From Schmidtea nova (taxonomy: Eukaryota), in assembly GCA_044892505.1 (NCBI GenBank), contig CM097882.1, positions 449,562,001 to 449,605,602 of the forward strand: a stretch of DNA of 43,602 nt, written 5' to 3'. The notes below the pieces were generated by a model. That model did no database searches and had not been told where the DNA came from. It saw only the letters and a list, made by a program, of their open reading frames with translations. Positions 6,418 to 43,410 of the stretch are shown here, piece after piece (position 1 is the first letter of the stretch; each line of letters opens with the position of its first letter). The translations under genes and the position numbers were made by a program.

Positions 6418-6540
6418 ATTTATGTAGTTTATTTTTTATTTATTTAATAAATATGTAATATATATATATATATATATGATAAAAATTTTTTGGGCATTTT
6501 TTTTACCTGATGTATAAATGGGCATTTTTTTACCTGATCC

Positions 6541-8051: not shown

Positions 8052-8152
8052 TTGGTGGGTTGTTGATCGCCTATATGAACTTAACGTTGCTAGGGATGAC
8101 ATCAACACGTAAAAGATTAGTCAAAACCATCTTGTTGCCCGTCACAATGTAA
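8052..8152 (+). repeat. ~100-bp dispersed repeat, copy 1
   Basis: TTGGTGGGTTGTTGA...CATCAACA...TGTTGCCC.TCACAATGTAA is shared with 13146-13250. Confidence 0.7.
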
Positions 8153-8599
8153 CGTTGGATGTGACAAATGGGTGGATATCCGCAAACAGTCAGCGTTGAA
8201 AAAGCGAAACTATGATTGACCGAAGATCTCAGTGGGTTCAAGGGCTACTGGTAGAAGGTTCAAATCCATTTCTCCACGAGTAATCTATAACTGTGTGATA
8301 ATTTTTAAGCGACAATTTAAAATAAACAATCACGACGCAATAATTTGTCTCATAATCTATACTATGTTCTTACTAAGACGAATGATTAAGAGGAAATTCT
8401 AAAGAAAGATACTTCGTTATTTAGTAGATATTCAGGTTCTTTACGAATTTTGTTTCGTTATTGTCCCATCACTCTCAATATCAGGCAATCAATACATTCA
8501 AACTTGCAAATAAACTAAGCAATTACAATACATACAATTAAAATTTTTAATACAATGAACACAAAAATATATTATCAATTTACAAAAATGTTTTCATGT

Positions 8600-10204: not shown

Positions 10205-10282
<78 letters not shown>

Positions 10283-12240
10283 GATCCTTGACTTTTCTTC
10301 CTTGGTTTCTTAATGTCTTTTTTAACACTGGGTACAAATCATACTTTTTAATCTTGATAACCCATCTGCATTCGAATGTTCTTCACCTTTTCGATATTTT
10401 AGTTCAAATTCATATTCAGACAGGTTAACTTACCATATTTGAAACTGCGGACTGATTGGTGTTTTTCTAGTGTGCATGAAAACCAATACTTTGTGGTCAG
10501 TGCGAATTAAGAATTTTTTTCTCTTAAAGATCTTCTCTAAAATGTATGTCATACTCATGTACAGCGAGCAATTCTTTCCTGGTTACACAGTAACTCTTTT
10601 CATTTGATGTCATATGTCTCGAACCATAAGATATAAAAGATTCTTCTCCATCTTCTTTAAATTGGATCAAAACGTCACCCATAGCTCTAAAGCTAGCGTC
10701 TGTGTCTAAGATAAATTTCCTAACTTCTCTTGGATAATCAAGGATAGGCGCCTTGCACAACCGTTTCTTAGTGTTTGGAAACTCTCATTGCATTCTTTAA
10801 TTCAAATTATGTTTTATCGCATCCAGATGTTGTGCATATAATGGTTCTGCTATTCTGGCATAGTCTTTATTGAATCTTTTATAGTAGTTTGTTGATCCGA
10901 GAAACGATCTTATTTTCTTCGATCATTTTGGTATTTCTGCTTTCTCGATCTCTTCAACTTTCCTTCTGTTTGTTTGGATACCCTTCTTATTAACTATGTG
11001 CCCAAGGAAACACAATTCTGTTTAATTGAATTCGCATTTCTCTGGATTTATCTTTAGTCGTGCCATTTAAATTTTTCTAAATATTTCCCCAAGTAGCTCA
11101 TCGCGATCTTTATGACTTTTTCCATATATCAAAATATAATCTAGATAAATTACTACTGCTTTGAATAGTATTCCTTCTAGTACTGTGTGCATCAGTCTGT
11201 GGAATGTAACAGGTGCTGTTGCTTAGCTAAACGGTAATCTATTAAAGCAAAATTGTCCTTTTCTTGTACTAAATGCAGTCATTTCTTGAATTTCTGGGGC
11301 CAACTCTACTTGTTAGTACGCCTGACCTAAATCAATTAACGAAAATATTTTTGTATTCGCGAGACAGTCTAGTAAGAATTTGATATTAGGCATCGGAAAT
11401 AATTTCTTTTTTGTTTTGGAATTCAATTGACGATAGTCTACACACATACTGATGTATCCACGTTTCTTCCCTACTATCACTAACAGCGTATTTGAAGGAC
11501 TCTTGCAGCACCAAATAACATTTGCTTTCAATAATGCTTTTATCAGCTCTTCAATACTTTTCTCTATGAGCCTTGGTTGACGACGAGGATGTTGCATTAT
11601 TGGGCCCCGTGTTATCCCCATCTCATGTCGAACTAAAGTTTTAAATCCCAGATCAAATTTCGACGCCATAAGAATTCCGCCGTATTTTCTGGTTATTCCT
11701 TCAATGTCTTAACTATTCTCACCTGTCATTGTTATCAGTGTTTTATTTATTTTTTCTTCATCAGTGTGGTATTTGTTTGTAAATGAAGTTTCTATATAAT
11801 TGATTTTCACTAACCTTACTACAAACTCTTTCATTTTATCAATACCCTATGAATTCAGGCTTGATCTCTTTTACAATACTACTTTGATAATTTGGTCTTC
11901 TGATTCCATGTGGCCGGTATAGTCATACAACTCATTGCGTCTTCATCTCCAGTTGAAAACACGCCGTATAATAATATAGTACTACGTTGAAGGTCTGGTT
12001 TGCCTATTCTCTCTCTCACAAATTCTTGCTCATGACTGTTACTGACACTCCAGAGTCCCATATCATATCTACTTCTGTATTATTCAACATTATTTTACTC
12101 CAACATCTTCCATCTTTTGTCTGATAAATCTTTTCTTCTGCCTTGTCTCTTCGTCGTTCATTTCTTCTTACACAATTGTCCACCTTTGGTTCCGTTTTCA
12201 GATCCGTAGTTTCAATTCTTTAATTCATTTTTGATAATTT
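8600..12240 (-). mobile_element. Degraded Ty3/Gypsy internal region (protease, RT, RNase H, integrase)
   Basis: MIWDSGVSVTVMS (~12050); MCVDYRQLN..FSLIDLGQAY; FILDTDAS..YCVTRKELLAV; integrase remnants 9400-9980. Many stops and frameshifts; no matched LTR pair. Confidence 0.9.
10206..10280. repeat. (TA)n microsatellite inside pol
   Basis: Pure TA run. Confidence 0.95.
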
Positions 12241-13145
12241 TCCTGAATGGAGATTATATGAATCAGAGCGTTACAACAGAAAATAAAAACAAAACTTGAA
12301 AATATTTATAATCATAAAAATTTATGTTTCAACTGTTGGTGAACCACTTGATGTTTCTAGCAACTTATGGAATTTCTAGGGTAATTTGTCGTGGTCACCT
12401 TCATAAATACAATCCAAACAAGTGTGTACCCATGAGATCTCTTTATTCTCATGTTGGTTATACACACCTCGGCGTAAATCAAGTTGGTAGGTGAACGAAC
12501 TTGAACGTTCCTACTCCCAGCTTGAGTTTACTACGGGTTCCACTTGGTCGATAGAAGACCACTTTTTATTCTTTTACTTCTCGGTCTCTCATTATTGAGA
12601 AAGTCTGTCTTCAAAAGCTGCTTGGTCTACAGCTCCTTTAAATTACTAATATGCGGGACGAGAAAATATTTTATTAGTTCTACTGTAACCTAGTCACTGA
12701 AGTATACTAAGATGTATTTAATATTTATGTTAGAAAATGGACGAACCATAAAAATTTTGAAATTAAAACATTACAAAATAGGGGGTAATAGGTTCAGAAT
12801 AAACATCAACATACAAGAATAATACAAGATTCCAGCAATCCAGTCTACCCATCAACAATTATTTGTGATATAGATTAACTTAAATACTTTAACAATTATT
12901 TGAATTTATCTTTATTTATCTTTTTTTTATATGACTAATTATTTGAATGTATATGATGATCCTTTATGTGAATTTGACAATTTATTTTATTTTTGTTTGG
13001 TTATTTTATAATATTGTGATTTTAATTATTAATTTTTGCATCTTTATTTTAATTTTCAACGGTATAAACATGACAACGATTTAATTGAAAAAAAGGTTAT
13101 CCCGAGTCAGAACTCCCCCCATACAAATATATATATATATATATA

Positions 13146-13250
13146 TTGGTGGGTTGTTGACCGTCAATGACCTTGACGTTGCTATGACTCACATCAACAA
13201 TTCAACACATAAAACATTAGAATAACCATTTGTTGCCCATCACAATGTAA
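13146..13250 (+). repeat. ~100-bp dispersed repeat, copy 2
   Basis: Diverged copy of 8052-8152. Confidence 0.7.
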
Positions 13251-13520
13251 TTTCTGCTCCCATTATTCGAAAGAATTCATCACATATTGTTTTTGACATG
13301 TATGATGTGTTTCCAGAACCACAGTTTCCATACTTCAGTATATATGCTGTTCAATAATAATTTTGTATAAAATAATTTTGCATTTGATAAAAGCATATAT
13401 TATAATAGGTAATAGTAAAAATTTAATCAGAATTATTAAAATATTCTCTATTCCCAGCATCCCTGAGGTTAAAAAGGTATTAGTCTATATCTGCTTGATA
13501 CTTATACATCATTAATATTA

Positions 13521-13724
13521 TTAATTTTCTGATAATTTGTTTATATCTATCTGTTTTTTTATTATTTTTTTTGTTTTAATTGATGTAGAATTTTTTAATA
13601 ATTTTGTTTAAATATTTATTATTAAATATTTAATCAGAATTATTAAAAAATTCTACGTCAATTAAAACAAAAAAAATAAATAATAAACAAACATATGGAC
13701 ATAAACAAATTATCAGAAAATTAA
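13521..13724. repeat. ~200-bp AT-rich imperfect palindrome (foldback/MITE-like)
   Basis: TTAATTTTCTGATAATTTGTTTAT...TTGATGTAGAATTTTTTAATAATT is mirrored by AATTATTAAAAAATTCTACGTCAA...ATAAACAAATTATCAGAAAATTAA; centre ~13620. Confidence 0.85.
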
Positions 13725-13867
13725 TGTTATATCTATGGATAGTTAATTAAATTAAATAAATAAATTACCACAATTCAAAAATCTATTTATATATAAATAA
13801 TATTAAAACAAATTATATAATTCATAATACTAAAACAAGTTTTAATATTATTAATTCACATATAACA
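13725..13867 (-). repeat. 3' LTR (143 bp)
   Basis: TGTTATAT...ATATAACA terminal inverted repeat; purine-rich AGACAGGGGAA precedes it on the - strand, right after the integrase stop. Confidence 0.85.
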
Positions 13868-13877
13868 TTCCCCTGTC

Positions 13878-14885
13878 TTATTCAGCTCTCAACTCTAAAT
13901 CGTCGTATAATCGCGGCTTCACATTTCTATTGTGTCTTTTCGGGTATCTTCCTGTGGTCTCTTTATTCTCTCCCGTCGACGTTGCTTCGTTAACTTCTTC
14001 CAATCTCTCCGATTCTTTTGTTCTTGGCCATATACTTGTTCCCCAACTGTCCGTCTCTATCTTTGCTATTTCTGATCTTTCTGGGATAATCTTAATCTGG
14101 TTATAATTACGCTGTATTATCTTCCCATCAGCCTCTCTTCTTAATTTAAAAGTCCAATCATTTACTTTCTTCAGTATTTCATATGGGCCGCAGTATTTCT
14201 CCCCGAATCCTTGTTTCTGCATTACTTTTACCAATGCCGAATCTCCTTTTTTGACGTCCGTATTCCATTTATTTCGATTGTAAATCTTTTCGTTATATAC
14301 TCTCGCTTTATCAGTTCTCTTTTTTACTTCCTCTTCTATGTTCGTTAACTCTGTTCTCAGTTTTCTCATGAATTCTTCGTAGTCTTGTGGTCCTGTTATG
14401 TCGTTTGTTTCTTCTCTTACTTTTGGTGTTCTGCCGAACAATAATTCTATCGGTTTATATCCAGTACTTTTATGGACTGTGTTCCTTACTCCATATTCTA
14501 CCGTGTGTACTGTTGAATCCCATTCCTTCGTCTTTCTGTCAAACATGGTCGCTGCCATCATACTTTTTGCTGTTTGGAACATTCTTTCGATTAAGCCGTC
14601 AGATTGTGGGTAGTACGGTGATGTACAGGTTTTCTTTGTTCTTATCAGACTGCACAAATCCTTAAACATATTTGACTCAAAATTCTTTCCCTGATCTGAG
14701 TGAATCCTTTCTGGTATACCGAATTTTGTGATCCATTCTTCCCATATTGCTCTAGCCACTGTTTCTGTCGTAATTTCTATGAGTGGTATTAGACATGAGT
14801 ATTTTGTGAAGTAATCAATTAGTCCCAGAATGTATCTATTTCCTTTTCTTGTCATTGGAAAAGGTCCCGTAATGTCTATTCCCAA
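13878..14885 (-). pseudogene. Integrase core and GPY module
   Basis: GIDITGPFP, IHSDQGKNFES, PQSDGLIER, YCGPYEI. Confidence 0.92.
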
Positions 14886-15083
14886 AATTTCTAAAGGGGT
14901 ACTGCTTATAAAACTCTGTAGTGGTGCTCTTACTCTACCGTTTATATACTTGTTATGTTGACAGGCTATACATCATTTACTCTATCTATAACGTTCTCGT
15001 TGATATTTGACCAGTAGTATCTTTCTTTGACTGCTCTCGTGGTTCTTTCGATGCCTACATGTCCCAATTCCCGATGTAACTCG

Positions 15084-15118
<35 letters not shown>

Positions 15119-16187
15119 CTTACTTCTTCTGGTAGTATTTTCCTAAGTCCTTCTGCTTTCTTAATCATAAGATTTCCTTCGCTGACATACATGAGCTCCG
15201 CTTTTCTCCATAGTTCTAAATGTTTCCGGTTTTGTTCTTTTCTCCCTTGCTGTATCCAATCGATTATTTGCCTAACTTCTGAATCCGTCTTCGTATTTAT
15301 TTGACATATAATTCTTTCTGACTTGTTCTCTCCAGTAGAATTGTTTTCTTCCTCGTAAACCTTTACATTTCATTTCTTTCGTGAGTCCGCGTGTTTCAGT
15401 CGGCATTGTTCGCATGGTGTAATTCTTGACAATGCGTCCGCATTGCAATGGTCTTTCCCTTTTCTAAATTCAACTTTCATGTCATATATTTCTAGTTCTG
15501 CTTTCCATACACAATATTGAGAGTAGTTTGGACTACTCCAATCTAATAACCATTTAAGTTCCTGATGATCTGTTCTTACTGTGAACTTTTTACCTACTAA
15601 ATAATACTTGTATTTTAATACAAATGTGTAAATTGCCAAAAGTTCCTTGCATGTGATACAGTATTTCCTCTGCGTTTTCGTCATAATTTTCGACCCATAA
15701 GCAATAACTCTCTCCTTTCCATCTTGGATTTGAGACAGGATGGCCCCTATTGAATCGTTAGACGCGACTGTGTCTAAAACGTAGTATCCATCTGTAATTG
15801 GTAATGCTAATATTGGCGGTGATAGTAAAGCCTGTCTTAATCTCTCGAACGATCCTTGTTTTTCCTCCGTCCATTTAAATTTGTTTTCTGTTCTAAGCAT
15901 TTTGTTTAAAGGTTCTGTCGTCTTAGCGTAGCCTTTAATGAAGTTTCTGTATTATCCCGTCATCCCTAGAAATGTCCTTAGCTCTTTCTGACACATTGGT
16001 TTCTTATATTCTCTTATCGCTTTGGTTTTGTCTGGGTCCGTCTGTACTCCTTCTTCGTTTATAATGTGTTCCAAATATCTTACCTCGTTTTTAGTAAGTG
16101 GCATTTCTTCGGTGATAATTTTAGTCCTGCTTCTCTCATCTTCAGTAGTACTCTATCTAATCTTTCGTTGTGTTCTTCAATTGTTTT

Positions 16188-17228
16188 TCAGAATATCAGA
16201 ATATCGTCTAAATATATCACACAGTTAGTCCAGTTCTCTCTTCTTAAGACTACGTTCATTATTCTTTGAAATGTTGCTGGTGCGGCACATAATCTGAATG
16301 GCATTCTTGTGAACTCGTATTGGCCGAATCTCGTGCTGAATGCTGTTTTCCTTATATCTTCTTCTGCGATTGGAATTTGATAGTATTCACTGGACATATC
16401 TAATGTGGAAAAGAATTTTGCGTTTCCGATCGTATCAAAGACTTCGTTTGCTGATGGTATTGGAAATATTGCTCTTTCTGTTTTTGCATTTAAAGCTCTG
16501 TAGTCGATGCACATTCTCATGTCCCCATTCTTTTTATTAGTTACCACTATGGGAAAGTCCCATGGTGAATTGCTTTCTCTAATAATTCCAGCTTCTTCCA
16601 ATTCTGTAATGTATCTTCTCACATCTACCTCCAATACCCTTGGTATCCTTCTATGTTTGAATGCTATCGGTGTTGTTTTCCCTGTTTCTATAGTGTGATG
16701 TCCAACATTTGTCTTCCCAATATCCATTTTGTAACTACTGAATACTACTTTGTTCCGCCAAAAAAATTGTGTAATCTTCTGTTTTTCTGTTATTGTTAAT
16801 CTATCGTCTAGCTTGTTTATCAACCCTTTCACAATTCTGTCTATACTTCTCTTTTCTTTGTTTTGGTCGATTGTTGACAACTTTATCAACGTGTTATTTT
16901 TCCCCTTCTTGTCCGTCCATTCGTCCGCTTCTCCCAGTGTTGTTCCTGTATGTAGACTTTTCACTCCTCCTTCCTGCATATTAATTCGGACCCAAACTAA
17001 TCCCTCGGAACATGTTGCTAGTCCATCTGCTACCAGTATACCTCTTTCCTCCATCTTGCTCTTGTTTCCTGTAAATAAACAATTAGTTACGTGTTCCTTT
17101 ATCCTCTCGTTCTCCTTATCTACTATCATCCCTTTGATCCAATAGTCCCCCTCTCCTTTCAGTGTCACATTTTCTACTACCACTACTTTTCTCGTTTCTT
17201 CTTCCGTCCTTTTAACTAGTCTTCCCAC
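16188..17228 (-). pseudogene. Pol N-terminal region and reverse transcriptase
   Basis: SNSPW, MCIDYRALN, FSTLDMSSEYYQ, MPF, VIYLDDILIF. Confidence 0.92.
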
Positions 17229-17264
17229 TCCTGGACGCCTGGGAGTGGCCTTTAACAGTTTAAA
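17225..17264 (-). promoter_or_regulatory. Putative -1 programmed ribosomal frameshift signal
   Basis: T TTA AAC (17264-17258), 9-nt spacer, then stem CCACTCC/GGAGTGG. The zero frame stops two codons later; the -1 frame is the RT ORF. Confidence 0.75.
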
Positions 17265-18169
17265 GACGATGGTATTGATGTCTTAGATAGAAATAGAATT
17301 TGAATACCCTTTACCTCGATACAGTCTTCTGCCGGTTTCATTATTACTCCCAGTTCTTTCATGCATCTGAGTCTGATATTCACATGTAGGAATACCACAT
17401 TCATTATTTCAAATTTGTGTTTTTTCATCCTTGGACCCAAACTCAGTGATAATACTAATTGTTCTAGGTTTTTCCTTTACTTCCATCTGCATACGCTACT
17501 CTAACGTTTGAATCCCTGACTTTTATTGTCGAATCTCGTTGTATTATTTTCCCTGCCATTTCCTCGCTAATGACATTCAAATCTGCCCCAGTATCGAATA
17601 GTGTTTTAACTTCTTCTTCTTGGATTTTGCAACAAATGATTGGTTTTTTGGTTGCCCTTTCCGATCGTCTTTGCGATATTACTGTTGTGGCTTTTTTAAA
17701 TATTTTTTCCCTTTGGTTTGTCGCCTTTACCTCCGATAAACTGTGCCCACTTCTCTTCCATTATTAGCTTACTATTCTTTGTCTTCTTTTCTTTTTATGT
17801 AATGTCTTTCATAATTCGTTCTGATTGGTTGTCTTCTTCGTATTCGCTATCTGAACTTGTCCTTTGTACGGATACTTCTTCTAATTGTCGTACTCTTCTA
17901 TAATCGTCCCTCTTATTTGGGCATTCTCTACTTATGTGTCCCTTTTTATTACAATTAAAACATGTTACCATTTCTCGATATTCTCGGCAATTGCTCGATA
18001 TTTGTCCTGTTTTCTTGCATCGGAAGCATCTTTGGTTCTTCTTTTCTTCGCAGAAACGTGCAATATGACCGGTTTTGCTGCAATTCTAACATTTCACGTG
18101 TTGTCCATTGTGGAATTTTTTTCTGCTTCTATCTTGGTTATTCGGTTTTTTTATATTTTTAATAATTTC

Positions 18170-18722: not shown

Positions 18723-19085
18723 AGTATTCCCGATATAATTTCATTGTACAGTAATAGCCAAACTGGTGGCGAATTACCGTATTTTATAGGTAAACAGTAT
18801 TGATCAGGCTGGTTGAAAACTATTGGAAGATTTGCACTTCCACTACTTAAGCGACTGGGTAGTTTTGGAATGAAAACTGCTAGAGATGTTATAATGAAAG
18901 ATCAGAAAATTTTGCCTTCATTGAAAACGAATGCTATGGAGGCTGTATCCAAAGCGATGCCGTAAATTTAAAATATGTTTTCCAAAAATGAACCGGAACC
19001 TGAACCGGTAGGACCAAGACCCAAAAAGGATAGAAAACGTATAAACAAACGAATGAAAGGTCATGGAACTATATTTGAAGAATGA
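18720..19085 (+). pseudogene. Small virion core/membrane-lytic precursor-like protein (~121 codons, 3 internal stops)
   Basis: QTGG, QY*SG, amphipathic WLKTIGRFALPLLKRLG and a K/R-rich tail; its stop overlaps the capsid ATG (ATGA). Confidence 0.7.
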
Positions 19086-20301
19086 TTTGCGGTAAATCTG
19101 AATTATGTATTTTTGATCGACCAAGCCCCCAATCAGTTATTGAATATGGGGTGTTTGAAGATGTTTTTCCAATGAATTCTATTACAGATAGTAGAAATGA
19201 TGTTGAATTTTACATTAATGGATCGGCAACCGAATATTTGGATTTGAACGATACTTTATTATCCGTTACTGTCAAGGTTCTAGATAAAGATAAAAATAAA
19301 TTAGATGATGCGAGTGATGTAGTGCCTAATAATTACCTGTTTCATACTTTTTTCAAAGATGCGATTCTTGGATTTAATAATATAAAAATTGAGGGTGGAA
19401 ACAATACATATGCACACAAGGCCATAATCGAAACTGTTTTAAGTTATACTAGCGATACAAAAGAAACATGTCTTACTCCAATGGGATATGGTTCATCTGA
19501 TGATAGAAAAAGTGGATCAAGAAATCTAAACTTTTCAACATGTGTTCATCATTACAACTCGATTTTATGGATCAACCTAAATACTTACTTCCCTGAGTTA
19601 ATGTACATATTAGATTGAAGAGATCTGATTCTGCATTATCATTGAAATCGGCAACTGGGAAACCAATAATCCAATTAGTAGACGCTAAATTAATGGTTCA
19701 AAGAGTTCGATGTGAATCTTCAGTATTAGACGGTCATCAAATTGGTTTAAATAGTAAACATGCAATTTATCCTCTAAAATCAAAAGAAATCGTATCATTT
19801 GCAATCGGTAAATGGGCATCATCATTTTACAAGGAGCAAATATTTGGAGATAGAAGAATGCCTAATTTCATTCTTGTGGCTTTTCAAACTGAAAATCAAT
19901 ATAACGGATCATACGCTGAATCTGCATCTTCATTCAAACATTTCAATGTGACTTCATTATCGTTATCGAAAAATACCGATTTTCGAGAAACTTATACTCA
20001 AGATTTTGAAAATGATAATTTTAGTGCCACATATATGCAAAGTCTTGTCCGAAATTTAGGATATTTGGATAAAAACTTGAATTGTGGTATAAGTCTGGAT
20101 GAATTTAAAACTAAATATCCATTCTTTACATTTGTTTTGGCTCCCGATTTCGATTTGAATCAAAGTCAAATCCCACAAAACGGTAATTTAAGGCTAGATA
20201 TAAAGTTTGCAAAACCCATTGATGAACCGATTCATGGAATTATATATGGAGTTTTTGAAAATGAAGTACAAATTACTGCCAATCGAACAGTATTGGTTTA
20301 A
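19082..20301 (+). pseudogene. Major capsid protein (double jelly-roll, F54H12.2-like); frameshift ~19510, stop ~19594
   Basis: KSELCIF..P..Q, EFYING..EYLDLN, FMDQPKYLLP*V, FKHFNVTSLSL, GNLRLDIKFAKP. Confidence 0.85.
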
Positions 20302-20810: not shown

Positions 20811-20915
20811 ATGTCTTGTTATTTTATCGATATTTATGGATATAATGAAATGGGTGGAACAACAATTAAGGAATTATGTATTATGAATGTTAATAATATT
20901 TTCACACCTCAATAT
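20811..20915 (+). pseudogene. Truncated start of a further Polinton ORF, possibly DEDD exonuclease-like
   Basis: MSCYFIDIYGYNEMGGTTIKELCIM, cut off by the tandem repeat. Confidence 0.4.
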
Positions 20916-21137
20916 TTGTGTTAAAAAAATTTGTGTTAAAAAATTTGTGTTAAAAAAATTTGTGTTAAAAAAATTTGTGTTAAAAAAATTTGTGTTAAAA
21001 AAATTTGTGTTAAAAAAATTTGTGTTAAAAAAATTTGTGTTAAAAAAATTTGTATAAAAAATATTTGTGTTAAAAAAATTTGTGTTAAAAAAATTTGTGT
21101 TAAAAAATTTGTGTTAAAAAAATTTGTGTTAAAAAAA
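20915..21137. repeat. 15-bp tandem repeat (AAAAAAATTTGTGTT), ~15 copies, within the Polinton end
   Basis: Seen directly. Confidence 0.95.
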
Positions 21138-21870
21138 ATATTTTGAAAAAAATAATTTGAAAAAAATTTTGGCTCGAAAAAAAATTTGAAAAACAAAATT
21201 TTTGGCTCGAAAAAAAATCTGAAAAAAAATTTTGGCGCGAAAAAAAAATACCCTTCCCCGAGGGGAATGTCTTTGTTCTTTTTTTTCCGCCCACGCGATG
21301 AGTCATAATGTCTTTGTTCCCGGCTCAACACATCTACCTACTTTTAAGAGATTTATTTTTCATTTAATAATTAATTTAATTTTTTTATAGCAATTTCGAT
21401 AATTCTGAAGGCTCAACATTAAACTTTCGGGAAAACAATAAACCAAATTTGTAAAAATTATTTTTTTAATGAAAGACAATCAAGTTTTGCAAGGCTTGGT
21501 TTAAGAAAGAAAAACTAGAAAAAAAGTAAGTTTTATTGGTTAAAATTTAAAAATGTTATTACAATTGGATTCAGCACCATATCGTTCCAAGACAGATTTG
21601 GCCTAATAAAATCAGCACTGGATAATGAATTAGAAAAAGATGGATACAAAAATCTCAAAAATTATAATCAGCCTATCCATCGCTTTTTTCCAAAATGCTG
21701 CAAAAATAGATATCTTTGAAGAATAATGTTATTAATGTAATAAAATAATAAATTTTACTTTAGTTTCTTACTTTATGCGAATATAAATCCTTTTTATGTT
21801 GATAAGTTACTAAAAAAAGTCATATTTAAATGATAAATTTAAGTAAATTTCTTACTTAATACAAAGAAAT

Positions 21871-25371: not shown

Positions 25372-25771
25372 ATTCTGAGCCATCAACCAAGGGTCAGTAA
25401 TCGACTAACAACTTAACATTTGTTTGCCAGAATCAAAGATAGCAGCCGATCAAGTATAGCAATTGATCTGTTATACGATTTTCTTTTATTTCAACACCTT
25501 TTTTGATTCCTTGGCTGTTTTTAACGTCTATTTTCTGTTTCAACTATTTACAAAAATACACAAGGTTCATTTAGATTAAAATATTTACGCTTAAAAACTA
25601 TTTTACTATTTTAACAGATTCTTATAAATAATAGACGAAGTTTAATAACAACAATAATATTATACAAATTGAATATATTGGACAGTTTTAATATAGATTA
25701 AGTATATGGAATTTAGACAGATGTATAAAATGCATATTTATATCAAATGAAAAAAAATACATTACTGAAGA

Positions 25772-26821
25772 ATGTCAAAATTGTCCAATATTAGTCCAGA
25801 AAAGAAAAAGGAGCCGTTTGAATTGAGAATTGACGACGTTATAAGAAAGTTGGTTCATTTTAGCTCGGAAAACTCACCAAAATTATCTTACGAAGAATGT
25901 TTGGCTATATCGTTAGTAGCGCAATCTCTTTTTGCAAATGAAAATACAATGCTAGAACTGGTCGCACCAATATATGTTTGCGGCGATATTCACGGTCAAT
26001 TTAGGGACTTATTGAGATTATTTGACATGTGTGGATTTCCTCCAAATAAAAGATTTCTTTTCCTCGGAGATTATGTTGATAGGGGAAATTATGGTCTAGA
26101 GTGTATTTGTTTGTTATTCAGCTTGAAAATCCGATACCCAAAAGACATTTTTTTATTAAGGGGAAATCATGAATGCGAAAGTATAAACCGATTCTATGGT
26201 TTCCGCGACGAAATTAAGAGTAAATTCTGTTCCACGAAATTATGGAGAGCATTTCTAAAACCATTTGATTATTTACCGATCTGTGCAACGATAGATAACA
26301 GTATTTTTTGTTGTCACGGCGGTTTAAGTCCATTTATGCTGGATCCACAGATAACTTCTCTTAGAGATTTTGTGGATCATATTAAAAGACCGTGCAATGT
26401 TATTTTAGAAGGTTTAGTCTGTGATATACTTTGGTCTGACCCGACGGATCTCATTGATGGTGAGTTACCCCCTAATGGATGGGAGGAAAATGAAAGAGGC
26501 TGCTCTTGGACCTTTGGTTACGATATAATTGAAAAATTTTTAGATAAATTCGATTTGGATTTAATTGTGAGAGCACATCAAGTTGTACAAGATGGCTATG
26601 AGTTTTTTTGTAATAGAAAATTGTTAACAGTTTTTAGCGCTCCCAATTACTGTGGAAAGTTTGACAATGCAGGTGGTGTTTTTCAATTAGAAAAGAATTT
26701 CGATACACCCCATGGAACGCCTCCTATTATTGAAGGGAAATTTTTAATATTGCAACCCAATTATAATTTATCAGATCAGTTTCGCAATTTAAAAAAATGT
26801 AATGGGAAATTTATTAACTGA
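25772..26821 (+). CDS. Ser/Thr protein phosphatase, PP1 catalytic subunit-like, intronless, 349 aa
   Basis: GDIHG, GDYVDRG, RGNHE, HGG, LWSDP, RAHQVVQDGYEFF and SAPNYC are all intact. Confidence 0.95.
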   Translation: MSKLSNISPEKKKEPFELRIDDVIRKLVHFSSENSPKLSYEECLAISLVAQSLFANENTMLELVAPIYVCGDIHGQFRDLLRLFDMCGFPPNKRFLFLGDYVDRGNYGLECICLLFSLKIRYPKDIFLLRGNHECESINRFYGFRDEIKSKFCSTKLWRAFLKPFDYLPICATIDNSIFCCHGGLSPFMLDPQITSLRDFVDHIKRPCNVILEGLVCDILWSDPTDLIDGELPPNGWEENERGCSWTFGYDIIEKFLDKFDLDLIVRAHQVVQDGYEFFCNRKLLTVFSAPNYCGKFDNAGGVFQLEKNFDTPHGTPPIIEGKFLILQPNYNLSDQFRNLKKCNGKFIN

Positions 26822-28689: not shown

Positions 28690-28817
28690 NNNNNNNNNNN
28701 NNNNNNNNNNNNNNNNNNNNNNNNNNNNNNNNNNNNNNNNNNNNNNNNNNNNNNNNNNNNNNNNNNNNNNNNNNNNNNNNNNNNNNNNNNNNNNNNNNNN
28801 NNNNNNNNNNNNNNNNN
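28690..28817. other. Assembly gap
   Basis: N run. Confidence 1.
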
Positions 28818-29539
28818 ACCACTTCCATACTATCTGAAGTCAGTCCGGCCCATGAGCTGTGCTGGCGGAAGTAGCCTACGTAGATCGCTGTTCGATTGAG
28901 GTCCATCAACTAGCCAGCCCATATTTCTATTTAAAGTTAGGCCCACACATCTATGATCACTTCATCCCATACGTTGATTTTGGGTAATAGTGACATGGTC
29001 AAGGGCAAGGACTTTTCGAAGTAAATCCACGTCTAGAATCCTATTACATTTTTATTGAAATGCGATACGGTATTCAAAGACGCAATTGAATATTTTATTA
29101 TAGTATAATATTTATATTTATTTATATCAATCTACATAACTCTCACAACTACACAAAAGCTTTCAAAATTATAAATCCAACTCGTAAATCGTCATCGCTC
29201 ACATGAACATCTTCTTCACCTCATCACGAAAGAAATCGCGAAGTTATCTAAAAAATCTACTTTATAAAAAGCTTCCAACTAGCAACTCAGAGTGTAATAG
29301 AAATTCTCAGATTGTATCAGAATATAAAAATTATAGCTGAAATTATTCAGTTTAATTTCACCTTAATTGAAGAATTATTCCCAAAAAATCTTTTAATTTT
29401 GATCTATAATTTTGAGTATGCGAAATTTCCAAATGAATTACCTCGAAAATCTTATTTATATCTTATTTGAAAAATTCGCGTTATGATTCAAAACTTCCTT
29501 TTTATAAATGTATAATTCTATTACAAATAAAAAATAATA

Positions 29540-30266
29540 TGTAGTGCCTCGGATTTAATTATGACATTAATTTAATAATTAAATTATTAATTTAGTATGA
29601 TATTAAATAAACATTTTTTCCTTTTTGTTTTAAATAATAAATAAACCTTCCTTTTTTACTTTTTCAAAAAATCCAACATGGTCCAAGAAGAACTCATTAT
29701 TTTCAATTCAAAATCAAAAAAGAAGTCAAATGAAATATTTTCAAATCCAAACGTTGTGACGAATCCGAGATCTGTGGAAATACCGAGTGAAAAGAAGCTA
29801 TCTGAATCGAATATTTATAAACTATCGGATTGTGTCAGTAACAATCATCAGTCATTGAATACGGGAATTCTTTCATCTTCATCTTAGTTATGTACTCCGA
29901 TTGGAATGGCAAATTCTCATTTACTCCTACAATTTCAAAACGATCCCCAATATTTCTCGTTCTTAAATACTCCTAATGAGTCTTCGATTTTCAGTAGCTG
30001 CAATATGAGTCAGGTTAATTAATTTTCTGATGTCGGTCTAATGGATGATAAACAGAATCCGCAATCGTTTATACAGAGTGAAACCAATAAAGAACTCAAC
30101 CAAAAAACCATCGAATCCCAAACACAATATGTGTAATGCACAAACAATACTGAATCCCAGCACAATTAATCAAAACCAACGGGCTAGGCTGTCAAAGGTG
30201 TCATTAATGTAAATGTTGAATATGTTATTTTTATCAGGCTTATATTAAATTGATTGTTTTTCTATA
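29540..30266 (+). repeat. 5' LTR (~727 bp)
   Basis: TGTAGTG...CTATA (CTACA in the sister copy), followed by PBS TGGTGTCAGA at 30269 (tRNA-Leu type). Confidence 0.8.
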
Positions 30267-33200
30267 ATTGGTGTCAGAGACGACAAAAGTATTTTTTTGA
30301 TTTCTTCTAGAAAGCTGTTTCATTATTTCTATTATATAATTGTCCTTAAGACTTTTATAAATTATTTAATATTTATTACATTGTTATCTTTTGATTGTTA
30401 TTTTGATGTCATATTAATGTCATATCCCCCAATAACCAAAAAATGTCTCCTTTAAATGCAACACAACGACCCACATAACAGTTCGCCACAACAACATTTT
30501 ACACAAAATTCGCGTCATCTCTCATTTCATCAACGATCTATCAAAACACTTTTTAATAGACCATAAAGAATTTTTATCCCCTATAACGGAATTCCCATCG
30601 CGGATACTTTCACTATCCCAGCAAATTCCATAATTTCTCTGCATTCGAGCAAGAAGGGTGCCAGAACAAACATCGACCATAACTCCTCCAACCCTATAGG
30701 CGTAACTCAATTGATCTTTCTTGACTCGGACGGAACACCATCTTCTTGGTTCCGCATTTTCGAAGCACGCACAAGTGCTACTCCCAAATTAAGACAAGAG
30801 CTCCTGTTAGACTCAATACCTAATGAATTAATGTCTAAATTAGGCTCCCAAATATCTGACGCCTTAGACTCAGAAACACCATATGAGTCGATCAAAACTG
30901 TGATCCAAAAGAAATATTTACCCACCCACACTTCAGCAATAGCAAAACTATCGAAGCCAACGCCGTTCACCGAACAAGTCCCTTCAGCTTTTTTATCTCA
31001 ATTAGTTCGCGAGCTCAAGGCCGCCAATGCTGGTCTATCGAAGAACACTGATCTCTTATGCCACTTTTTTAATAGCATTTCCTCATCATGTCCAAACATC
31101 ACTTCTCGTCGTCGATTCAGATGATCCTTTTCACTTGGCTAAAGTTGCTGACAAACTGTTCACGAGAACACCTATCCAAAATGTACCCTCTTCAATCGCA
31201 TCCGCCTCAGATCCATCACTACAGGAACATATATCTTCTTTGACAAAAGCGGTTGATGCGATACATAATTCTTCTCAACTAAATTCATATTCCCAAAGAA
31301 GCGACAAATTGAAATCCTATCCTCCTCTGATTTGTTTTTTTCACAAGAAATTTTCATCTGCCGCTCGAACATGTCATATCGGATGTTCATGGCAAAATCC
31401 TCCTTCGACTCTGAGTGTTATCGCCATTTGTATCTACCACAACATCTTCGGTTTACACGCACAAAAATGTCTTTCTGGTTGCACTTTCGTAAGCCATTCA
31501 TCAAAAGAATCACACGACAAAAACTATTCCAATTCTCCCCAAAATAAATAGCTCCGCTGTCTGTCAACCCTGGATTTTGAGGCGGCGTCCTTGCGATCAA
31601 CAACATTTTCACCGTTGAAGCAACTTTTGATTCCAGCCCATCAATTCATATTCTCATTGATTCCGGCTCATCATTTTCAATACTTCCAACGACTTTCACA
31701 CCAGACTTCAAATCTCCGTTCACTGTCTTGGCTGCCAATAGCACACCAATTCAATATTTAGGAAAAAAAGAACTTTCATTCACAATACCAACATTAGACT
31801 CAACTTTCACTCACATTTTCGACATAGCAGACACGATCCATCCAATATTAGGCTCCGATTTTTTCTGCAAAGAATCCATTATGGTAGACTGCAAAAACCG
31901 TCGTCTGTTCACTATAAAACAAGACGACACATATACAGAGACAAATTCACCACTGCCAAACGTAGTAACAGTTTCAACTCAGACATCTTCAGTGCCGCAA
32001 CTCAACTCAATTCAACAGGATTTAACGACAACACTTGACCAGCACACGTTGGAAACTGATCATACAGTCAGTCCAGACTCAATGAACGACATGATCAAAT
32101 TAATTTCAATCAAATATCCAAACCTCATCACAAAATCCGCTACCATACCACCCACTACCCTATCAACTCACTATATTCACACATCACCATGCATACCACA
32201 ACGCAATCGAACCAGACATCTCTCTTCCACCAAACTCGACGCAGTCAAAGCTGAATTCGTTAGTCTAGAAAACGAAGGCATTATATGTCGTTCATCTTCA
32301 CCATTGGCTTCACCAATACACGTAGTTACAAGGAAAGACGGATCTTTCAAAAACTCAACCAAGTAACAGTCCACGACGCATACCAAATACCACTCATAAA
32401 AGACTTAATAAAACGTTTTCAACAATCTTTCGTGTTCTCAACTATAGACCTCTCGAAAGCGTATCACCAATTTCCCATTCATATTGACGACGTCCCCAAA
32501 ACCACGGTAACTACGCCATTTCGAAATTTTGAATACATGTTCAAGCCTTTCGGCCTCAGAAACGCAGCTCAGTAATTACAACGCTTCATAGACACAATGT
32601 TTCGAGACGTCCGTCACACATTCGCATATCTCGACGATATTATTATAGCGTCACCTAATCGAGACAGCCACACAGACGATTTGAACACGGTCCTCGACAT
32701 ATTGAACCGTCACAATTTACAGATCAACATAAATAAATGCCGTTTTTTTCAAGAGCGTGTCAGATTCCTCGGCCATATACCTTCATCCAAGGGTTGCGAA
32801 CCTTTCCCAGAAAGACTTCACGTAATCTGCAGTTTTCCATTGCCAAACACTGTGACACAACTACGAAGTTTCTTAGGCATCGTCAATTTCTGCCACAGAT
32901 TCATTAAAAACGCGTTTCACATCACAGCACCTCTTTCAGCACTGAACACAGAGAAAAAGAATTCCATTATCAATTGGTCGATACAACAAGTGAGTCATTC
33001 AACAAAGTCAAAGACAATATATCTAAAATTAACACTATTTACTACCCTCGTCACCACCTTCCATTCAGCCTCACAACAGACGCATTCAACATTGCTGCAG
33101 GCGCAGTCCTTCACCAAATTTAAGACAATTTGTCACTACCAATAGAAATTTTTTCAAGGAAATTTTCATCGGCAGAGTCAAAGTACAGCGCATTTGACAG

Positions 33201-34700
33201 AGAATAACTTGCAATTTTTCTATCTGTCAAATACTTTAGTCACATTTTAGAAGGAAGGCAATTCACGATCTTCACCGACCACAAACCTCTCATCCACTGC
33301 TACACCATAAAAGAACCATCGAACAGAGTACATCGTCAGATAACATATCTATCAACTTTTGACATAAAATTCGTTCACGTCTGCGGCAAGAACAACGTAG
33401 TCGCCGACTACCTTTCTAGAAATATTTCAGCATCTATTACATCTACTCCAGTCTTTAGTCAAGATACTCTATGTTCAAATCCACCAACCTCAGAAGATCT
33501 CGTTCGCTTCAAAGACTCGCTTGATATAATAGGCGGTATACATTACGATACAACACTCTCAGACCAATTCTACACTAATCGCTTAGAAACGAAGCATTCT
33601 TCGCGGTTCATAATATACACCCAGGAATTATGTCCACGTACCACCTTATACGACAGAAAGTCACCTGGTTCTCATTATTCAAAGACGTAAAACAGTGGGT
33701 GTCTGAATATACAGGCTTCCAACAGCCCAAAGTGAATAGATATATTAAACCACCAATCACCCCATTCCCGACGGAATCAAGATTCGACATACTCCACATA
33801 GACCTAGTAGGCAAACTCCCGGCAGATGACAGATTCTGTTACATACTGACAATGATTGATCAGAAAACACGCTGGTTCGAGGCAATTCCAATTTCTGACA
33901 TCACCGCAAAAACGGTTGCACACGCTTTAACATCCACCTGGTTTTCACGTTATGGAATCCCAACCGCTATATTCACAGACCAAGGGACATAATTTGAATC
34001 GGATCTTTCCGATCATCTTACAAACAGTCTCGGCATCAAATATTTACGCACAAGCTCCTATCACCCGCAAACAAATTGTCTTGTTGAACGCGCTCATCGG
34101 ACCTTGAAATCGTCCATCAGAATTCTCTCAACGTCAACCTCATGGGTCAAAACTTTACCATTTATTTTATTGGGATGGCAAAACACACCAAATCGCTCAA
34201 GTGGTGTGTCATCTTCACAACTTTTATTTGGATCCAACATCTTCATGCCTAACGAACTCATCGACCTCTATAATGATTCACCACTAGACGAAATCAACCT
34301 CACACTCAAACATTTTTTGAGTCTCGACACAAACCCGTCATTACCATACTCCACATCATACAAACCGTATATACTACAATCGCTTTCTTCTGCAACCCAC
34401 GCATGGATGAAAAAACTCGACTCATCAAACTTCAAACCTAGATACAAAGGTTCATTCCGTATCATCGAACTGTACAAAAACCCACCAAAACTTGAAATTG
34501 ACAACAACCACGGAATGGTCAACCTATCAAGATTAAAACCATCTTTTTGTACTCTCGAGCAAGATGAAGTGCCAAATAATCATATCACAAAAGAAGATGT
34601 CATTGACGAAGACATTCAAGAAGACACGAAACAACTGACGACCATTACAAACACGTCTAATATCCAAGGTCCTCAAGATAATCCTCCATTCCCTTCTAGA
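29540..34700 (+). mobile_element. Ty3/Gypsy element (CsRn1/Boudicca-like gag), pseudogenised, lacking its 3' LTR
   Basis: 5' LTR, PBS, gag with CX2HX9CX3C motifs, LIDSGS protease, YLDD, RNase H, and integrase HIDLVG/FTDQG. Confidence 0.92.
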
Positions 34701-35736
34701 AGTTTTATGTCCTTAAAGAAATTTGTCGGGGCAATTTTTGCTATGTGTAGAATGTTGTTTGTGGCATACGGTGATGTTAAATTTTTTGTTTGCCATTGAA
34801 AGTGGGCTTGGTGAATTCAAAATTTTGAAGGTGTGGTTTTGGAGGTAAAAATGGGTCTGAAAAGGTGGGCGGAACTGCTTTTGTAATTTTATATATGGGG
34901 AAATGAAAATTGCTTTTAAAAAATTTCAATAAAATTGCAAAAAAAACATTATAAATATTTTACGAATGAGAGATATAGATGACAAAGTTAAAGATTTACA
35001 TGAGAAAGGTATGAAACTTACGTTTGTCACTTCTGACAACAATTGTAGAAAAACAATCAATTTAATATAAGCCGGATAAAAATAACATATATTCGACATT
35101 GACATTGATGGCATCTTTGACAGTCTAGCCCGTTGATTTTGATTGATTGTGCTGGGATTTGCCATTGTTTGTACATTACACATATTGTGTTTGGGATTCA
35201 ATTGTTTTTGGTTGAATTCTTTATTGGTTTTACTCTGTATAAACGATTGCGGATTCTGACTCATCTTGCAGCCACTGAAAATTGAAGACTCATTAGGAAT
35301 GTTTAAGAACGAGAAATATTGGAGATCGTTTTGAAATTGTTAGAGTAAATGAGAATTTGCCATTCCAAGTGGAGTACATAACTGAGATGAAGATGAAAGA
35401 ATTCCCGTATTCAATGACTGATGATTGTTACTGACACACTATGATAGTTTATACGTATTCAATTCAGATAGCTTCTTTTCACTCGGTATTTCCACAGATC
35501 TCGGATTCGTCACAACGTTTGGATTTGGAAATATTTCATTTGACTTCTTTTTTGATTTTGAATTGAAAATAGTGAGTTCTTCTTGGATCATTTTTATTAA
35601 ATAACGAAGGATATTTTGAAAAAAGTATGTCGAAAAAAAGTGAATATTAAAACAATGCCATCTAAACTCTCATTCGATAATTATTAAATAAGTTAATTAA
35701 TTAAAAAAAAAGAAATTTATAATTTAAGACACTACA
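34700..35736 (-). mobile_element. 5' end of a related Gypsy in opposite orientation (LTR 35736-35044, PBS, leader)
   Basis: TGTAGTG...CTACA then TGTTGTCAGAAGTG; ~570 bp is alignable as the reverse complement of 29678-30285. Confidence 0.85.
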
Positions 35737-36108: not shown

Positions 36109-36282
36109 NNNNNNNNNNNNNNNNNNNNNNNNNNNNNNNNNNNNNNNNNNNNNNNNNNNNNNNNNNNNNNNNNNNNNNNNNNNNNNNNNNNNNNNNNNNN
36201 NNNNNNNNNNNNNNNNNNNNNNNNNNNNNNNNNNNNNNNNNNNNNNNNNNNNNNNNNNNNNNNNNNNNNNNNNNNNNNNNNN
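36109..36282. other. Assembly gap
   Basis: N run. Confidence 1.
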
Positions 36283-38798: not shown

Positions 38799-39092
38799 GA
38801 TGTCCTATTTTATGTTTATTTTACGTTATTATTCGTTTAAGAGTTTGTAAACGCCGTCATTACTATGGACGGTGCCCTTGCGGTCACCAGGAACCCCCCC
38901 CTTTTAATTTTTTTATATTGTTTAATAATCAAATAATTATATAATTAAATAATTTGAATTATTAAGATTCAAATTATTAAATTCAAATAGCTTACTATAG
39001 GAAACTATAGTAAGCTAAATCCAGAAATAAATTAAATCGATTAAAAAATTAGAAATAAAAAATATCTCAAAATACTGAAATAAAAATTAAGC

Positions 39093-39575
39093 CAAGACAT
39101 TGAAATTCCCATTCCAAAATATTTTGTGATTGAAACAATACATTGGAATTCATTCCGAAATATAGTGTAATTGAAACAAGACATTGAGATTCCCATTCCG
39201 AAATATTTTGTAATTGAAACAAGACATTGAAATTCCCATTCCAAAATATTTTGTAATCGAAACAAGACCTTGAAATTCCCATACCGAAAGATTTTGTAAT
39301 TGAAACAAGACATTGAAATTCCCATTCCGAAATATTTTGTAATTGAAACAAGACATTGAAATTCCCATTCCAAAATATTTTGTAATCGAAACAAGACCTT
39401 GAAATTCCCATACCGAAAGATTTTGTAATTGAAACAAGACATTGAAATTCCCATTCCAAAATATTTTGTAATCGAAACAAGACATTGAAATTCCCATACC
39501 AAAATATTTTGTAATTGAAACAAGACATCGAAATTCCCATCCCAAAACATTTGATAATTGGAACAAGACATTGAA
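39093..39575. repeat. 43-bp minisatellite, ~11 copies
   Basis: Unit GAAACAAGACATTGAAATTCCCATTCCAAAATATTTTGTAATT. Confidence 0.95.
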
Positions 39576-40783
39576 GTTATTAAAAGAAGCTAAAATAAAA
39601 AAACTTTTCAAGTAACTTTTCGTGGTTTTTCTATTATCTTGTTCTTAATAAATTTTAGTAACTTAATAATAGTTCTGGTTAATTTATTGTAGCTCAATTT
39701 ATTGTTATTCATTTCTCAGTAACCGCACGACACAGCACACACCCCGAGTGTCGGCACATTACTAACGTCTGACTCTCTCGGGACCTACAATTTTCTTACT
39801 ACACTCGCAAATAAAAAATTTTAACTACTAGACTTAACAGTGAACGGAGATTTGTAGAACTATAATAATATATATATATATATATATATCATTTGAAAGG
39901 AAATTGAGAGGTAAGTATGATTGTCCTACCTTTGAAGAATAATGGTGAGTTTGAAACCTTCAAAAGTCTCAAAACCTTCAAGGGGTCCAAAATCTTTAAA
40001 ACTATATTACATATAAAATTTAACTTTAAGTCACTTGAAAAATTTTAAAAATTAAATTTACAAAAAATTAACTTTATTTTTAATATCATTTTAACTTTTC
40101 CCGTTGATGATACTAATAATATATATTTTGAAATAATTTCTAGAAATAGTACCTATTGAAGAAATCATACTATCTACTGAACCGGTTCCCGTGTCATTTA
40201 CGTTGCCCGACGCAATGCTGCGATTGCATACATGGAATTTCGCAAAATATTCTTCAGTTGAACTTCAATTCCATACAAGAGAACCGAGAGGAATTTTGTT
40301 TTTTGTGTAAAATGTTTATTGAGTAAATTGCTAATAGATAATAATTAATAATATATAATAATATAATTAAAAGTGGTTAGCCTTTCTCAACAATGTTTCC
40401 TTCAATCATTCAATAATAATTCTGCTATCGACAAACTATAAATATTTTATATTTTTAATAACCTTAAATAATAATAATAATATGGTTGAAAATTTTGAAG
40501 ACCGTAAGAATCACGTGATTTTTGTAAGTAGCGTTTTTACTTTAAATAAATATTCTCATCAATATATTATTTGGCAAAGATCGTTTCAAAGTACACATTT
40601 TTAGTATTAAAATCAATTAGTACTTTTGCAGGGAGCACAGTTTGACCATCCAAAAAATTCACTTATATGGTAATTCTTTTTAAAAGTTAGCAATACTGTT
40701 ATCTGGCTGTATCGGATATTTATATAATCGTATAATGTTTAGCTTTTTGAATTCAGAACTTTCAACCGAGCATATGTCTATAT

Positions 40784-43410
40784 CAGGGTGGCCAACAAGT
40801 CGATCGTCGATCTCTCGCATTGTTTGAGGTACAATTCCGCTTACTACCATGACTTTGAAGCGATTTTAGAAGACAAACCTTTGTAGTAATAGTTGAATGT
40901 ATTCTAGGAACTTGCCAAGTTCATGAACACCTAGAATTCTGACAACCAGACACTGTTACATACGCTCACCCAAAACAATACATTTTGAATATGTGTTACA
41001 TTGTCACCGGACACAACGCGCGAACGCACTAGTTACAACTCGACTCATCGAAGAACACAGTCAGTAAGCTTGAATATTTGGAAGTGCCATACGGTAGCTT
41101 CTTTTCTTTTGTATTAACTGTGTCATTATCAGGCAATATTATTTATCCTCGGTGACCACGTAGGATTTTAATTTTTTGTCTGTTTAATATGTAATTCCAT
41201 TTTCTTTGTTTTGAATTAAATTGCTTTTCTTACCTATCTATTTACTTGATAAGTGAGCATTCTCGGCAACAAATCTCTAAACTGCGGTCATTACATTATG
41301 AGAATAATAATGAACAGTATTCCAAATATATTAAGAATAACACTAATGCTATCTAAAGTAAGAGGTCAGTATTTTAAACCGTAATAAATATATTGTAACT
41401 TTAACACACTTCTTGTAAATTCGAATATATTTATATTAGATTTTAATATACTTGTATTGTTGTCCCTGATTGTAGTATGCAGGATTGTTATTATTTCTCT
41501 CAATGTAATGGAAATAATTGCCGCAGTTCATGAGTTTTTGAATTTTATAGGAAAATATTTAATTCAATATTTATTCTTTAAATTGTCATATTTCTTTGCA
41601 TTCTAGTATACCCATGAACATGAGTAGTAAACCAAAGAAATCTAAAACTTATCACTTCAATGAAAATGGGAACTTGATTACTTTTTTACAATGGTGAATG
41701 ATAAATGCTGTTTTTAATATGTCTTACCTCAGTAGCAATTTCTAAGAAGGGTAATCTGGAGAGACATTCTTTAGCTTTACATAACAAGTATCAAAAAGAT
41801 TATCTACCAATTTCTGAACTGAGTTAAGGATCTTAAAACTCGATTATCAAATCAACAAAGCGTTTTTAAAAAGATAAGGTTGAAGTCACAAGCAGTAACT
41901 ACTGCACCATTCAAAGTAAGCTGTCTCTTAGCAAAAAAATGCAAGCCATTTTCCGACGGTGAATTTGTAAAGGAAATATTTTTGGAAATGTCAGATTCAC
42001 TTTTTAACGATTTTAAGAACAAGAGTGAAATTGTTTCTGCAATTCAAGATCTACAATTGTCTTGAAACACAGTGGTGTGAAGACTTGAAATGATGAGTGG
42101 AAATGTAAAAGAGCAGCTAATTAAGGATATTAATAGATGTTCTTGTTTTTCCATTCAGTGTGATGAATCGACAGATATAAGTGATACAGCACAATTACTT
42201 GTTTTCGTTCTTATGATTTTTAAGGATTTTACATCTAAAGAAGAATTGTTGGGTATGATTTCTTTGAAGGAAAAGACTAGAGGTGTCGACATATTTAAAG
42301 CCTTTAAAAACTTGCTCTATGATTTGAAAGTACCCCTTTTCAAATTAGTCTCTATAACAACGGATGGTGCAGCTGCAATGAAAGGTTGCAAAAATGGATT
42401 TATAGCCCTATGTCGAACTGAAGATGAATTCCCAGCCTTTTTGAGCTATCACTCATATATCCCAGTGTCACCAAATGTAGCAAATATATCTATTCTTGTT
42501 TAGGATCTACATCGACATTTTCATACTTAAAGCTAACGAAGAGTAAACAACGTTCTGTCTTAATTGATTCCCATACAGAAAACTCATTATTAATATCTTT
42601 GTCAGGATATACACCTGATTATGATTCCTTGGTTAGAGACATGCAAACTCAGTCTTCCCATTAATGTTAAGGGAACAAAGTAAATTCTAAATCTCTATTT
42701 ATCTGTGGCTACTTTGAATTAATAAATATTGTTAATAGTTATCCATGTTCTTTTAACTCCTCTGGACGTGAGTTTTTGGCCCTTTAAATAATTATTGTTG
42801 ATGTTTTTACGTAAGTAGATAAACCGTATATCTATATTTTAGTACGAGGTGTACTTATCGAGCTATTGATAAATTAGCAAAAGTAAGTCATATTATTCTC
42901 TCGTGATAAATTTTCTTGACCCAAAAACACGAGAAAGTGAAATATTGTAATCAAATTATCAGCCATACTGTGCATTTTTATAACAACTTTTTTATGTTTA
43001 CGAACAAAAAGCACAACAACTTATACATTGCAGTTGATAAAAACCTCAAATCGCATTTTAAGTTAGTAAAACTCTATCTCGAAAAATTGTTGTAAACTCG
43101 AATTTTTTAGGTACCGCTTGTATGGAATGCTGCTATCAAACGTTGGGTCTGGGAATTTATTTTCTTCAGGAGTCTATGTCTCAAAAACTTAATAAGTGAT
43201 TTAAAAATAAAAATAGTTTTGATCATATTTTTTACTTATCTACCCATACGTCGCTGAAATGCACCTTATGCTGAAACACAATGTATAAACATGGTATGCA
43301 TTTCACACCTCTTCTTCCACCCTAAGACTACCCCTATGACAATAAGTCGATCGCGACACACTTTTAAGAAAAAAAGTAGATTTTATATACAGAAAAATTG
43401 GGCACCCCTG
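40784..43410 (+). mobile_element. End-to-end hAT (Charlie/SPIN/Buster group) with internal deletion, 2627 bp
   Basis: TIRs CAGGGTGGCCAA / TTGGGCACCCCTG; perfect 8-bp TSD GTCTATAT (40776-40783, 43411-43418); subterminal AAGTCGATCG at both ends. Confidence 0.92.
41614..42664 (+). pseudogene. GTF2IRD2/FAM200-like hAT transposase, broken and internally deleted
   Basis: KPFSDGEFVKE, FSIQCDESTDISDTAQLLVF, SITTDGAAAM, and C-terminal MQTQSSH*. Confidence 0.9.

Follow-up and report, generated by a model that had tools for sequence, protein, structure and literature searches.

A 42-nt coding segment with GT..AG ends, absent from one of two inverted LTRs of a Ty3/gypsy family in Schmidtea nova: a candidate case of splicing fixed by reverse transcription

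The window analysed here, a stretch of 43,602 nt of the Schmidtea nova genome (GCA_044892505.1, contig CM097882.1, positions 449,562,001 to 449,605,602), contains two similar arms, which are the 5' LTRs of two opposite-orientation insertions of a high-copy Ty3/gypsy family. Comparison of both copies confirms the observation of a preliminary description that the left LTR carries a GT..AG segment of 42 nt and that the sister copy lacks exactly these 42 nt; the feature is real and uncommon, though it was picked for its GT..AG look. The segment had been described as an intron lost from the LTR, but it proves to be ancestral coding sequence, whose translation is conserved in a homologous protein, P0003. 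From the sequences compared, the absence from the right LTR is on balance best read as a splice-derived loss of coding sequence, not of an ancestral intron.

Two insertions of one LTR family

The earlier label of LTRs stands for both arms. They have TG...CA termini with short inverted ends (TGTAG and CTA(C/T)A), both are followed by AT and then by a 12-mer resembling a primer-binding site (PBS), and the alignments of the family break at their limits (Table 1). The left copy ends in CTATA, and the loose ends of the family read CA at 30265-30266. Over 655 aligned columns the two LTRs are 91% identical, and the inverted pair 29675-30291 (+) / 35594-35019 (-) is the sole long interspersed match to the left-copy stretch in the window. 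They had been called sister LTRs, which is correct insofar as they belong to the same family; being inverted and separate insertions, however, they are not the LTR pair of one element.

Contigs of the family were obtained from four public runs of one study, one of which may be the window's own sample, and were aligned to 29500-30500 at 80% likeness. Between 847 and 2683 contigs aligned per run, and they show the sharp ends and varied flanks of an interspersed repeat: at 29553 and at 30264 the alignments run out into flanks that differ, and beyond about 30280 depth falls. The summed depth in run X1 is 5,000-13,000, against a depth of 10 for the contig with zero differences; summed contig depth being no copy number, the family is described only as high copy, and the dip in depth over 30010-30077 was not taken as a frequency. 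Four other 12-mers on both strands also reach 10/12 against the PBS motif, so that the evidence for the primer sites rests on their position. Downstream of the left PBS, the domains PF00078, PF17917, PF17921 and PF00665 follow in the gypsy order (RT, RNase H, integrase), and this gag-pol probably belongs to the left LTR. No 3' LTR or direct-repeat partner for the left element was found within the window, and both elements are truncated, which makes target-site duplications unreadable. The arms were also considered as decayed paralogous host exons, as suggested by a similarity that starts at an ATG, and this candidate was dropped on the family breakpoints, the PBS and the LTR termini.

The coding parts of the two LTRs are about 92% identical, while their first 140 nt (29540-29677 vs 35592-35736) barely align, with 15 of 300 shuffles reaching the score. 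The leaders (30281-30560 vs 34700-35029) align weakly, at a score reached by 0 of 300 shuffles. This uneven similarity of LTRs and leaders suggests modular recombination among LTR subfamilies. Just past the primer sites lie donor-like motifs, GTAAGT in the right copy (35016-35021, -) and GTATTT in the left one (30289-30294, +), which are in phase 0 with the right LTR frame and might splice it to downstream sequence.

Table 1. Coordinates of the features discussed, in positions of the window
Feature	Position	Strand	Details
Left LTR, 727 nt, 5' LTR	29540..30266	+	Starts TGTAG, ends CTATA in left copy
Right LTR, 693 nt, inverted second insertion	35044..35736	-	TGTAG...CTACA; lacks the 42 nt
PBS-like 12-mer, left	30269..30280	+	10/12 to the Leu-tRNA PBS given in PMC8905726
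PBS-like 12-mer, right	35030..35041	-	11/12 to the Leu-tRNA PBS given in PMC8905726
ATTAAA hexamer just before LTR end	30244..30249	+	Putative poly(A) signal; 1 of 7 such hexamers
Decayed Ty3/gypsy gag-pol	30567..34799	+	RT, RNase H, integrase; assigned by position, probably to left LTR
Decayed reading frame in LTR, from ATG	29678..30266	+	Homologous to P0003 residues 242-438
42-nt segment	30014..30055	+	14 codons, phase 0, GT..AG, CAG on both sides; missing from right LTR
42-nt deletion class	30014..30055	+	5 contigs (2, 1, 0, 2 by run; 3 of 4 runs), 2 more in a neighbouring row
63-nt deletion class	30014..30076	+	Same donor, on to next CAG; 9 contigs (3, 3, 0, 3 by run)
54-nt deletion class	29834..29887	+	GT..AG, phase 0, no microhomology; 1 contig each in runs X2 and X4

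Other features of the window

An intact-looking gypsy element lies at 2508-6420, with LTRs of 123 and 128 nt (95% identical), an unbroken gag-pol frame of 1242 aa and the AT spacer seen above, here followed by another primer-site-like motif. Two frames at 19079-20301, the second with a weak match to the double jelly-roll family PF21738 (E 0.0035, below cut-off), may be a Polinton-type capsid remnant. A divergent, intronless PP1-type phosphatase frame of 350 aa is found at 25769-26821 (best full-length match 68% identical), and a near-perfect hairpin at 13515-13730 has arms of 83 nt spaced by 4 nt and 84% complementary. Among the 120 relatives listed for the PP1 frame, 22 bear the names of flatworm species, in keeping with a probable flatworm host. 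Tandem arrays with periods of 15 nt and 43 nt occupy 20851-21230 and 39065-39664. The regions 1040-1498, 1589-2146, 42081-42503 and 11313-17282 contain hAT-type fragments (PF05699, PF14291), a Merlin-like fragment and, on the minus strand, further decayed gypsy frames, recognised by motif; the Merlin-like fragment, which we take to be a transposase remnant, has no Pfam match.

A probably captured coding fragment in the LTR

In the left LTR, stops at 29885 and 30020 interrupt the reading frame, as do frameshifts near 30102 and 30219. The right-arm translation, its two stops replaced by X, was run in a full HMMER scan of 1.84 billion proteins and had three matches, of which one is meaningful: P0003, a protein of 643 aa (E 3e-11) from a contig of 2319 nt that may be RNA or DNA. 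P0004 and P0005, which are repeat proteins, were rejected as chance matches. By tblastn, the homologous residues of P0003 align to the right LTR. The 14 codons of the 42-nt segment are kept in P0003 (SSCNMNSVNDFGDLAAIGSSDD, against SSCNMSQVNXFSDVGLMDD in the left arm), the local score dropping from 60 to 21 when the segment is taken out; a score of 60 arises in 4 of 10000 nucleotide shuffles with GT and AG preserved, in 32 of 10000 codon shuffles and in 0 of 12336 window 42-mers. The segment thus has the GT...AG ends of an intron, but its counterpart in the homologous protein is coding and conserved.

The in-frame TAA had been put forward as a sign of an intron. It exists in the left copy, but as a private mutation: at 30020, 97.7-99.5% of the summed contig depth has another base in all four runs. 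The stop at 29885 is similar, with 98.5-99.3% of the depth at another base in the four runs. Since P0003 keeps the codons and the TAA is private, the long form is the ancestral, coding one and the short form is derived. A code reading TAA/TAG as Gln was rejected: the frames of 1242 and 350 aa hold 52 and 8 CAA/CAG codons, respectively, and zero internal stops.

P0003 is of low complexity and looks cellular, which makes capture into the LTR the likely direction; about 190 codons homologous to this cellular-type gene would thus have been captured by the family. A search with P0003 returned only itself among 7999 scored, and a Pfam search gave no family match. None of the 47 candidates of a word-indexed search with the right-arm translation matched, and metagenome scans found nothing. 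Atlas features of P0003 gave UBAP2/Lingerer-like (UBAP2-Lig) and ataxin-2-like clusters, with all matches at 0.84 or lower, as leads only. The two arms differ by 34 non-synonymous and 10 synonymous changes, a dN/dS ratio of 0.86, and no selection is seen between them.

Deletion classes across the family

Fifteen of 30 joints were listed, and the class counts refer to those 15, which represent eight deletion classes and one strand switch. Three of the eight listed classes are GT..AG on the sense strand of the element, all in phase 0 and with lengths that are multiples of three (Table 1). The other five, of 84, about 282, about 86, 44 and 92 nt, have ends of other kinds. The 63-nt class includes nine further contigs in four neighbouring rows, netting 63 nt where the intervening letters are given, and is commoner than the 42-nt class (about 18 vs 5 contigs). 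The 54-nt joint comes from two contigs of the one study, whose sides measure 24-28 nt and align at 80% likeness, the sequence between them being not known, and repeats may yield such joints. A further GT..AG candidate, the 40 nt at 30198-30237, was discarded, since at its donor about 99% of the depth reads another base.

The joined form is present as DNA in several family contigs. An exact join of a donor to an acceptor on the sense strand is seen in the right LTR (junction at 35258-35256, - strand) and in the contigs with 42-, 63- and 54-nt joints; the 42- and 63-nt joints are ambiguous through their 3-nt CAG microhomology, and the 54-nt joint has 0 nt. The CAG repeat permits four equivalent placements of the 42-nt deletion, one of which is GT..AG; this microhomology had been noted as a caveat from the start. 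Variable endpoints had been named as an observation that would speak against splicing, and this is half the case: the 3' end varies, giving 42 or 63 nt, and the 5' end does not. With a fixed 5' end and AG at both 3' ends, alternative acceptors are as good a fit as CAG slippage. A 5-nt microhomology is present in the 21 nt that separate the two CAGs, and the 63-nt deletion may thus be the 42-nt deletion plus a nested 21-nt slip.

Splice signals and chance expectation

All donor and acceptor ranks were computed on the single left copy, not on the family, with the donor consensus MAG/GTRAGT. The donor at 30014 is joint best of the 33 GTs in the LTR. The acceptor of the 42-nt segment has 5 pyrimidines in 15 and ranks 20 of the 25 AGs, in agreement with the poor polypyrimidine tract noted at the outset; that of the 63-nt class, at 30076, has 9 in 15 and ranks 5, so that the better acceptor goes with the commoner class. 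The 54-nt class has a GTCAGT donor and an acceptor that ranks first among the 25 AGs, with 13 pyrimidines in 15. The CTAAT taken as a branch-point cue is present but lies within codons and is a weaker sign than first described; 4.5% of random 42-mers contain CTAAY.

Of random deletions in the LTR or window, 0.2-0.4% allow a GT..AG placement, and so do 13 of 2743 (0.47%) given at least 3 nt of microhomology. At 0.21% each, or 0.47% with microhomology, the probability of at least three GT..AG classes in eight is 5e-7 to 6e-6, and it is 2e-5 to 2e-4 if the 15 unlisted joints are all non-GT..AG events. These values include the 42-nt class, which was chosen for its GT..AG ends, and the 63-nt class, which shares its donor and for which GT..AG is automatic under CAG slippage. 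Splice dinucleotides bound three of the eight listed classes, only one of them free of ascertainment; for the 54-nt class alone, with the 42- and 63-nt classes dropped, the probability is 0.013-0.028 of six events and 0.04-0.10 of 21.

Origin of the deletions

The explanation towards which we lean, on the evidence of DNA joints, is a cryptic, exitron-like splicing of the element RNA fixed by reverse transcription. A Ty3/gypsy LTR family would have captured a coding stretch, which would lie in the element RNA, in R or U3. This stretch would hold latent splice sites: the donor at 30014 would pair with either of the next two AGs (42 or 63 nt), and another latent donor and acceptor would lie 54 nt apart; the spliceosome would sometimes remove these in-frame pieces. 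Reverse transcription would then copy the shortened RNA into both LTRs of a new insertion, which would give rise to sublineages without the piece, and the right LTR would be a descendant of such a spliced copy. Some of the short forms may have been amplified, as suggested by the many mutated variants of the 63-nt junction. Flatworm introns have modes at about 32 and 58 nt according to PMC4040987, and 42-63 nt is within that range. The earlier proposal of splicing and reverse transcription survives in part: it is the slightly better explanation and gains from the two further GT..AG deletions, but its ancestral intron is abandoned. A broader reading, in which the family has at least three latent in-frame introns (exitrons) in a captured host exon that were repeatedly spliced and fixed by reverse transcription, with the shortened forms still mobile, is tentative and, on the same joints, rather doubtful.

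A serious competitor, which we nevertheless consider less probable than cryptic splicing, is a microhomology deletion, in which RT or DNA repair slipped from CAG to CAG, the 63-nt form being a second slip or a nested loss of 21 nt; the GT..AG look would then be a by-product of the CAG repeat and a chance GT. The junctions of the 42- and 63-nt classes are at the first two downstream CAGs, the interval between these has its own microhomology, and RT switches mostly between short direct repeats in the events described in PMC2923612. Non-splice deletions are common in the family, as five of the eight listed classes are not GT..AG; this proportion, the low rank of the 42-nt acceptor and the presence of the 54-nt class on two contigs also weigh against splicing. 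Slippage, however, leaves the 54-nt joint unexplained, with its zero microhomology and top-ranked acceptor. Moreover, a CAG followed by GT is found at only 12 of the 418 CAGs in the window, and of the eight CAG-CAG pairs 20-120 nt apart, the two starting with GT occur among the listed joints, whereas the other six do not.

Two further readings are much less probable than either slippage or cryptic splicing. That the 42 nt were a true non-coding intron of the LTR, lost in one sublineage, is very improbable: the GT..AG ends, good donor, CTAAT and in-frame TAA of the left copy agree with this original interpretation, but the segment, when translated, matches P0003, its TAA is a mutation of the left copy only, and the length is 3n in phase 0, so that this reading is already largely refuted. 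An artefact of assembly or of the contigs is even more improbable. The region is a short-read contig with N gaps on either side (28690-28817 and 36109-36282), in a highly repetitive family, but the 42-nt skip recurs across runs (Table 1), and a contig of 258 nt covers 30110-30367 with 0 differences, across the LTR end, PBS and leader.

Comparison with known systems

Retroelement copies fixed in genomes after splicing are documented (PMC5860796; PMC11998498). The spliced integrated L1s (SpIREs) described in PMC5860796 similarly include copies that lack the stretch between a latent donor and acceptor, some of them in coding sequence. SpIREs differ in being non-LTR L1s whose splicing was proven experimentally and which are, in that account, mostly dead ends, whereas the deletions considered here are inside an LTR, are known from DNA joints, and in the 63-nt class seem to have been amplified. 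The Rem-intron-deleted Mtv proviruses of PMC11998498, and spliced HERV-H as cited there, share an in-frame splice-site deletion in an LTR-bounded element; alternative routes through cDNA recombination are considered for deletions of this type, and such cases are presented as rare. In these vertebrate retroviruses the env/rem intron or an internal cryptic intron was removed; here, three pieces of 42-63 nt are concerned, and they lie in a coding fragment captured into an LTR, that of a gypsy element from an invertebrate.

Among Ty3/gypsy elements, Steamer, with a Leu-tRNA primer site (PMC8905726), resembles the present family in its TG...CA LTR followed by the same 12-nt PBS motif. The Steamer LTRs reported there measure 153-219 bp, against about 700 bp with a gene fragment here, and the likeness noted is one of PBS and termini. 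Gene capture by LTR retrotransposons is described in PMC13317346 as the entry of foreign sequence into an element, LTR included, by aberrant template switching or transduction. The examples given there are plant elements, whereas here the host source gene was not found and the homolog matches no known family. Deletions by RT template switching (PMC2923612) occur at short repeats, like the 3 nt at the 42- and 63-nt junctions; the in vitro events reported there include none at canonical splice sites, and the 54-nt class has no repeat. A literature search over titles and the starts of abstracts, with incomplete coverage, returned no splice-like deletion within an LTR-borne captured exon.

Conclusions

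The two LTRs carry the warning that CAG microhomology can mimic a precise intron loss, and even under slippage an LTR that has widely spread a captured coding fragment is noteworthy. As a rule, the loss of spliced segments through RT is deduced from isolated events of the past; many copies together with three candidate splice-derived deletions would make recurrence, precision and splice-site strength testable on one tree. If cryptic splicing followed by reverse transcription is the true origin, spliced integrated elements, so far L1 copies and proviruses of vertebrates, would come to include an LTR of a gypsy element from an invertebrate. Under the broader and more doubtful reading of repeated splicing in a captured exon, the genome would be a datable record of cryptic splice-site use and of the RT-mediated loss of spliced segments.
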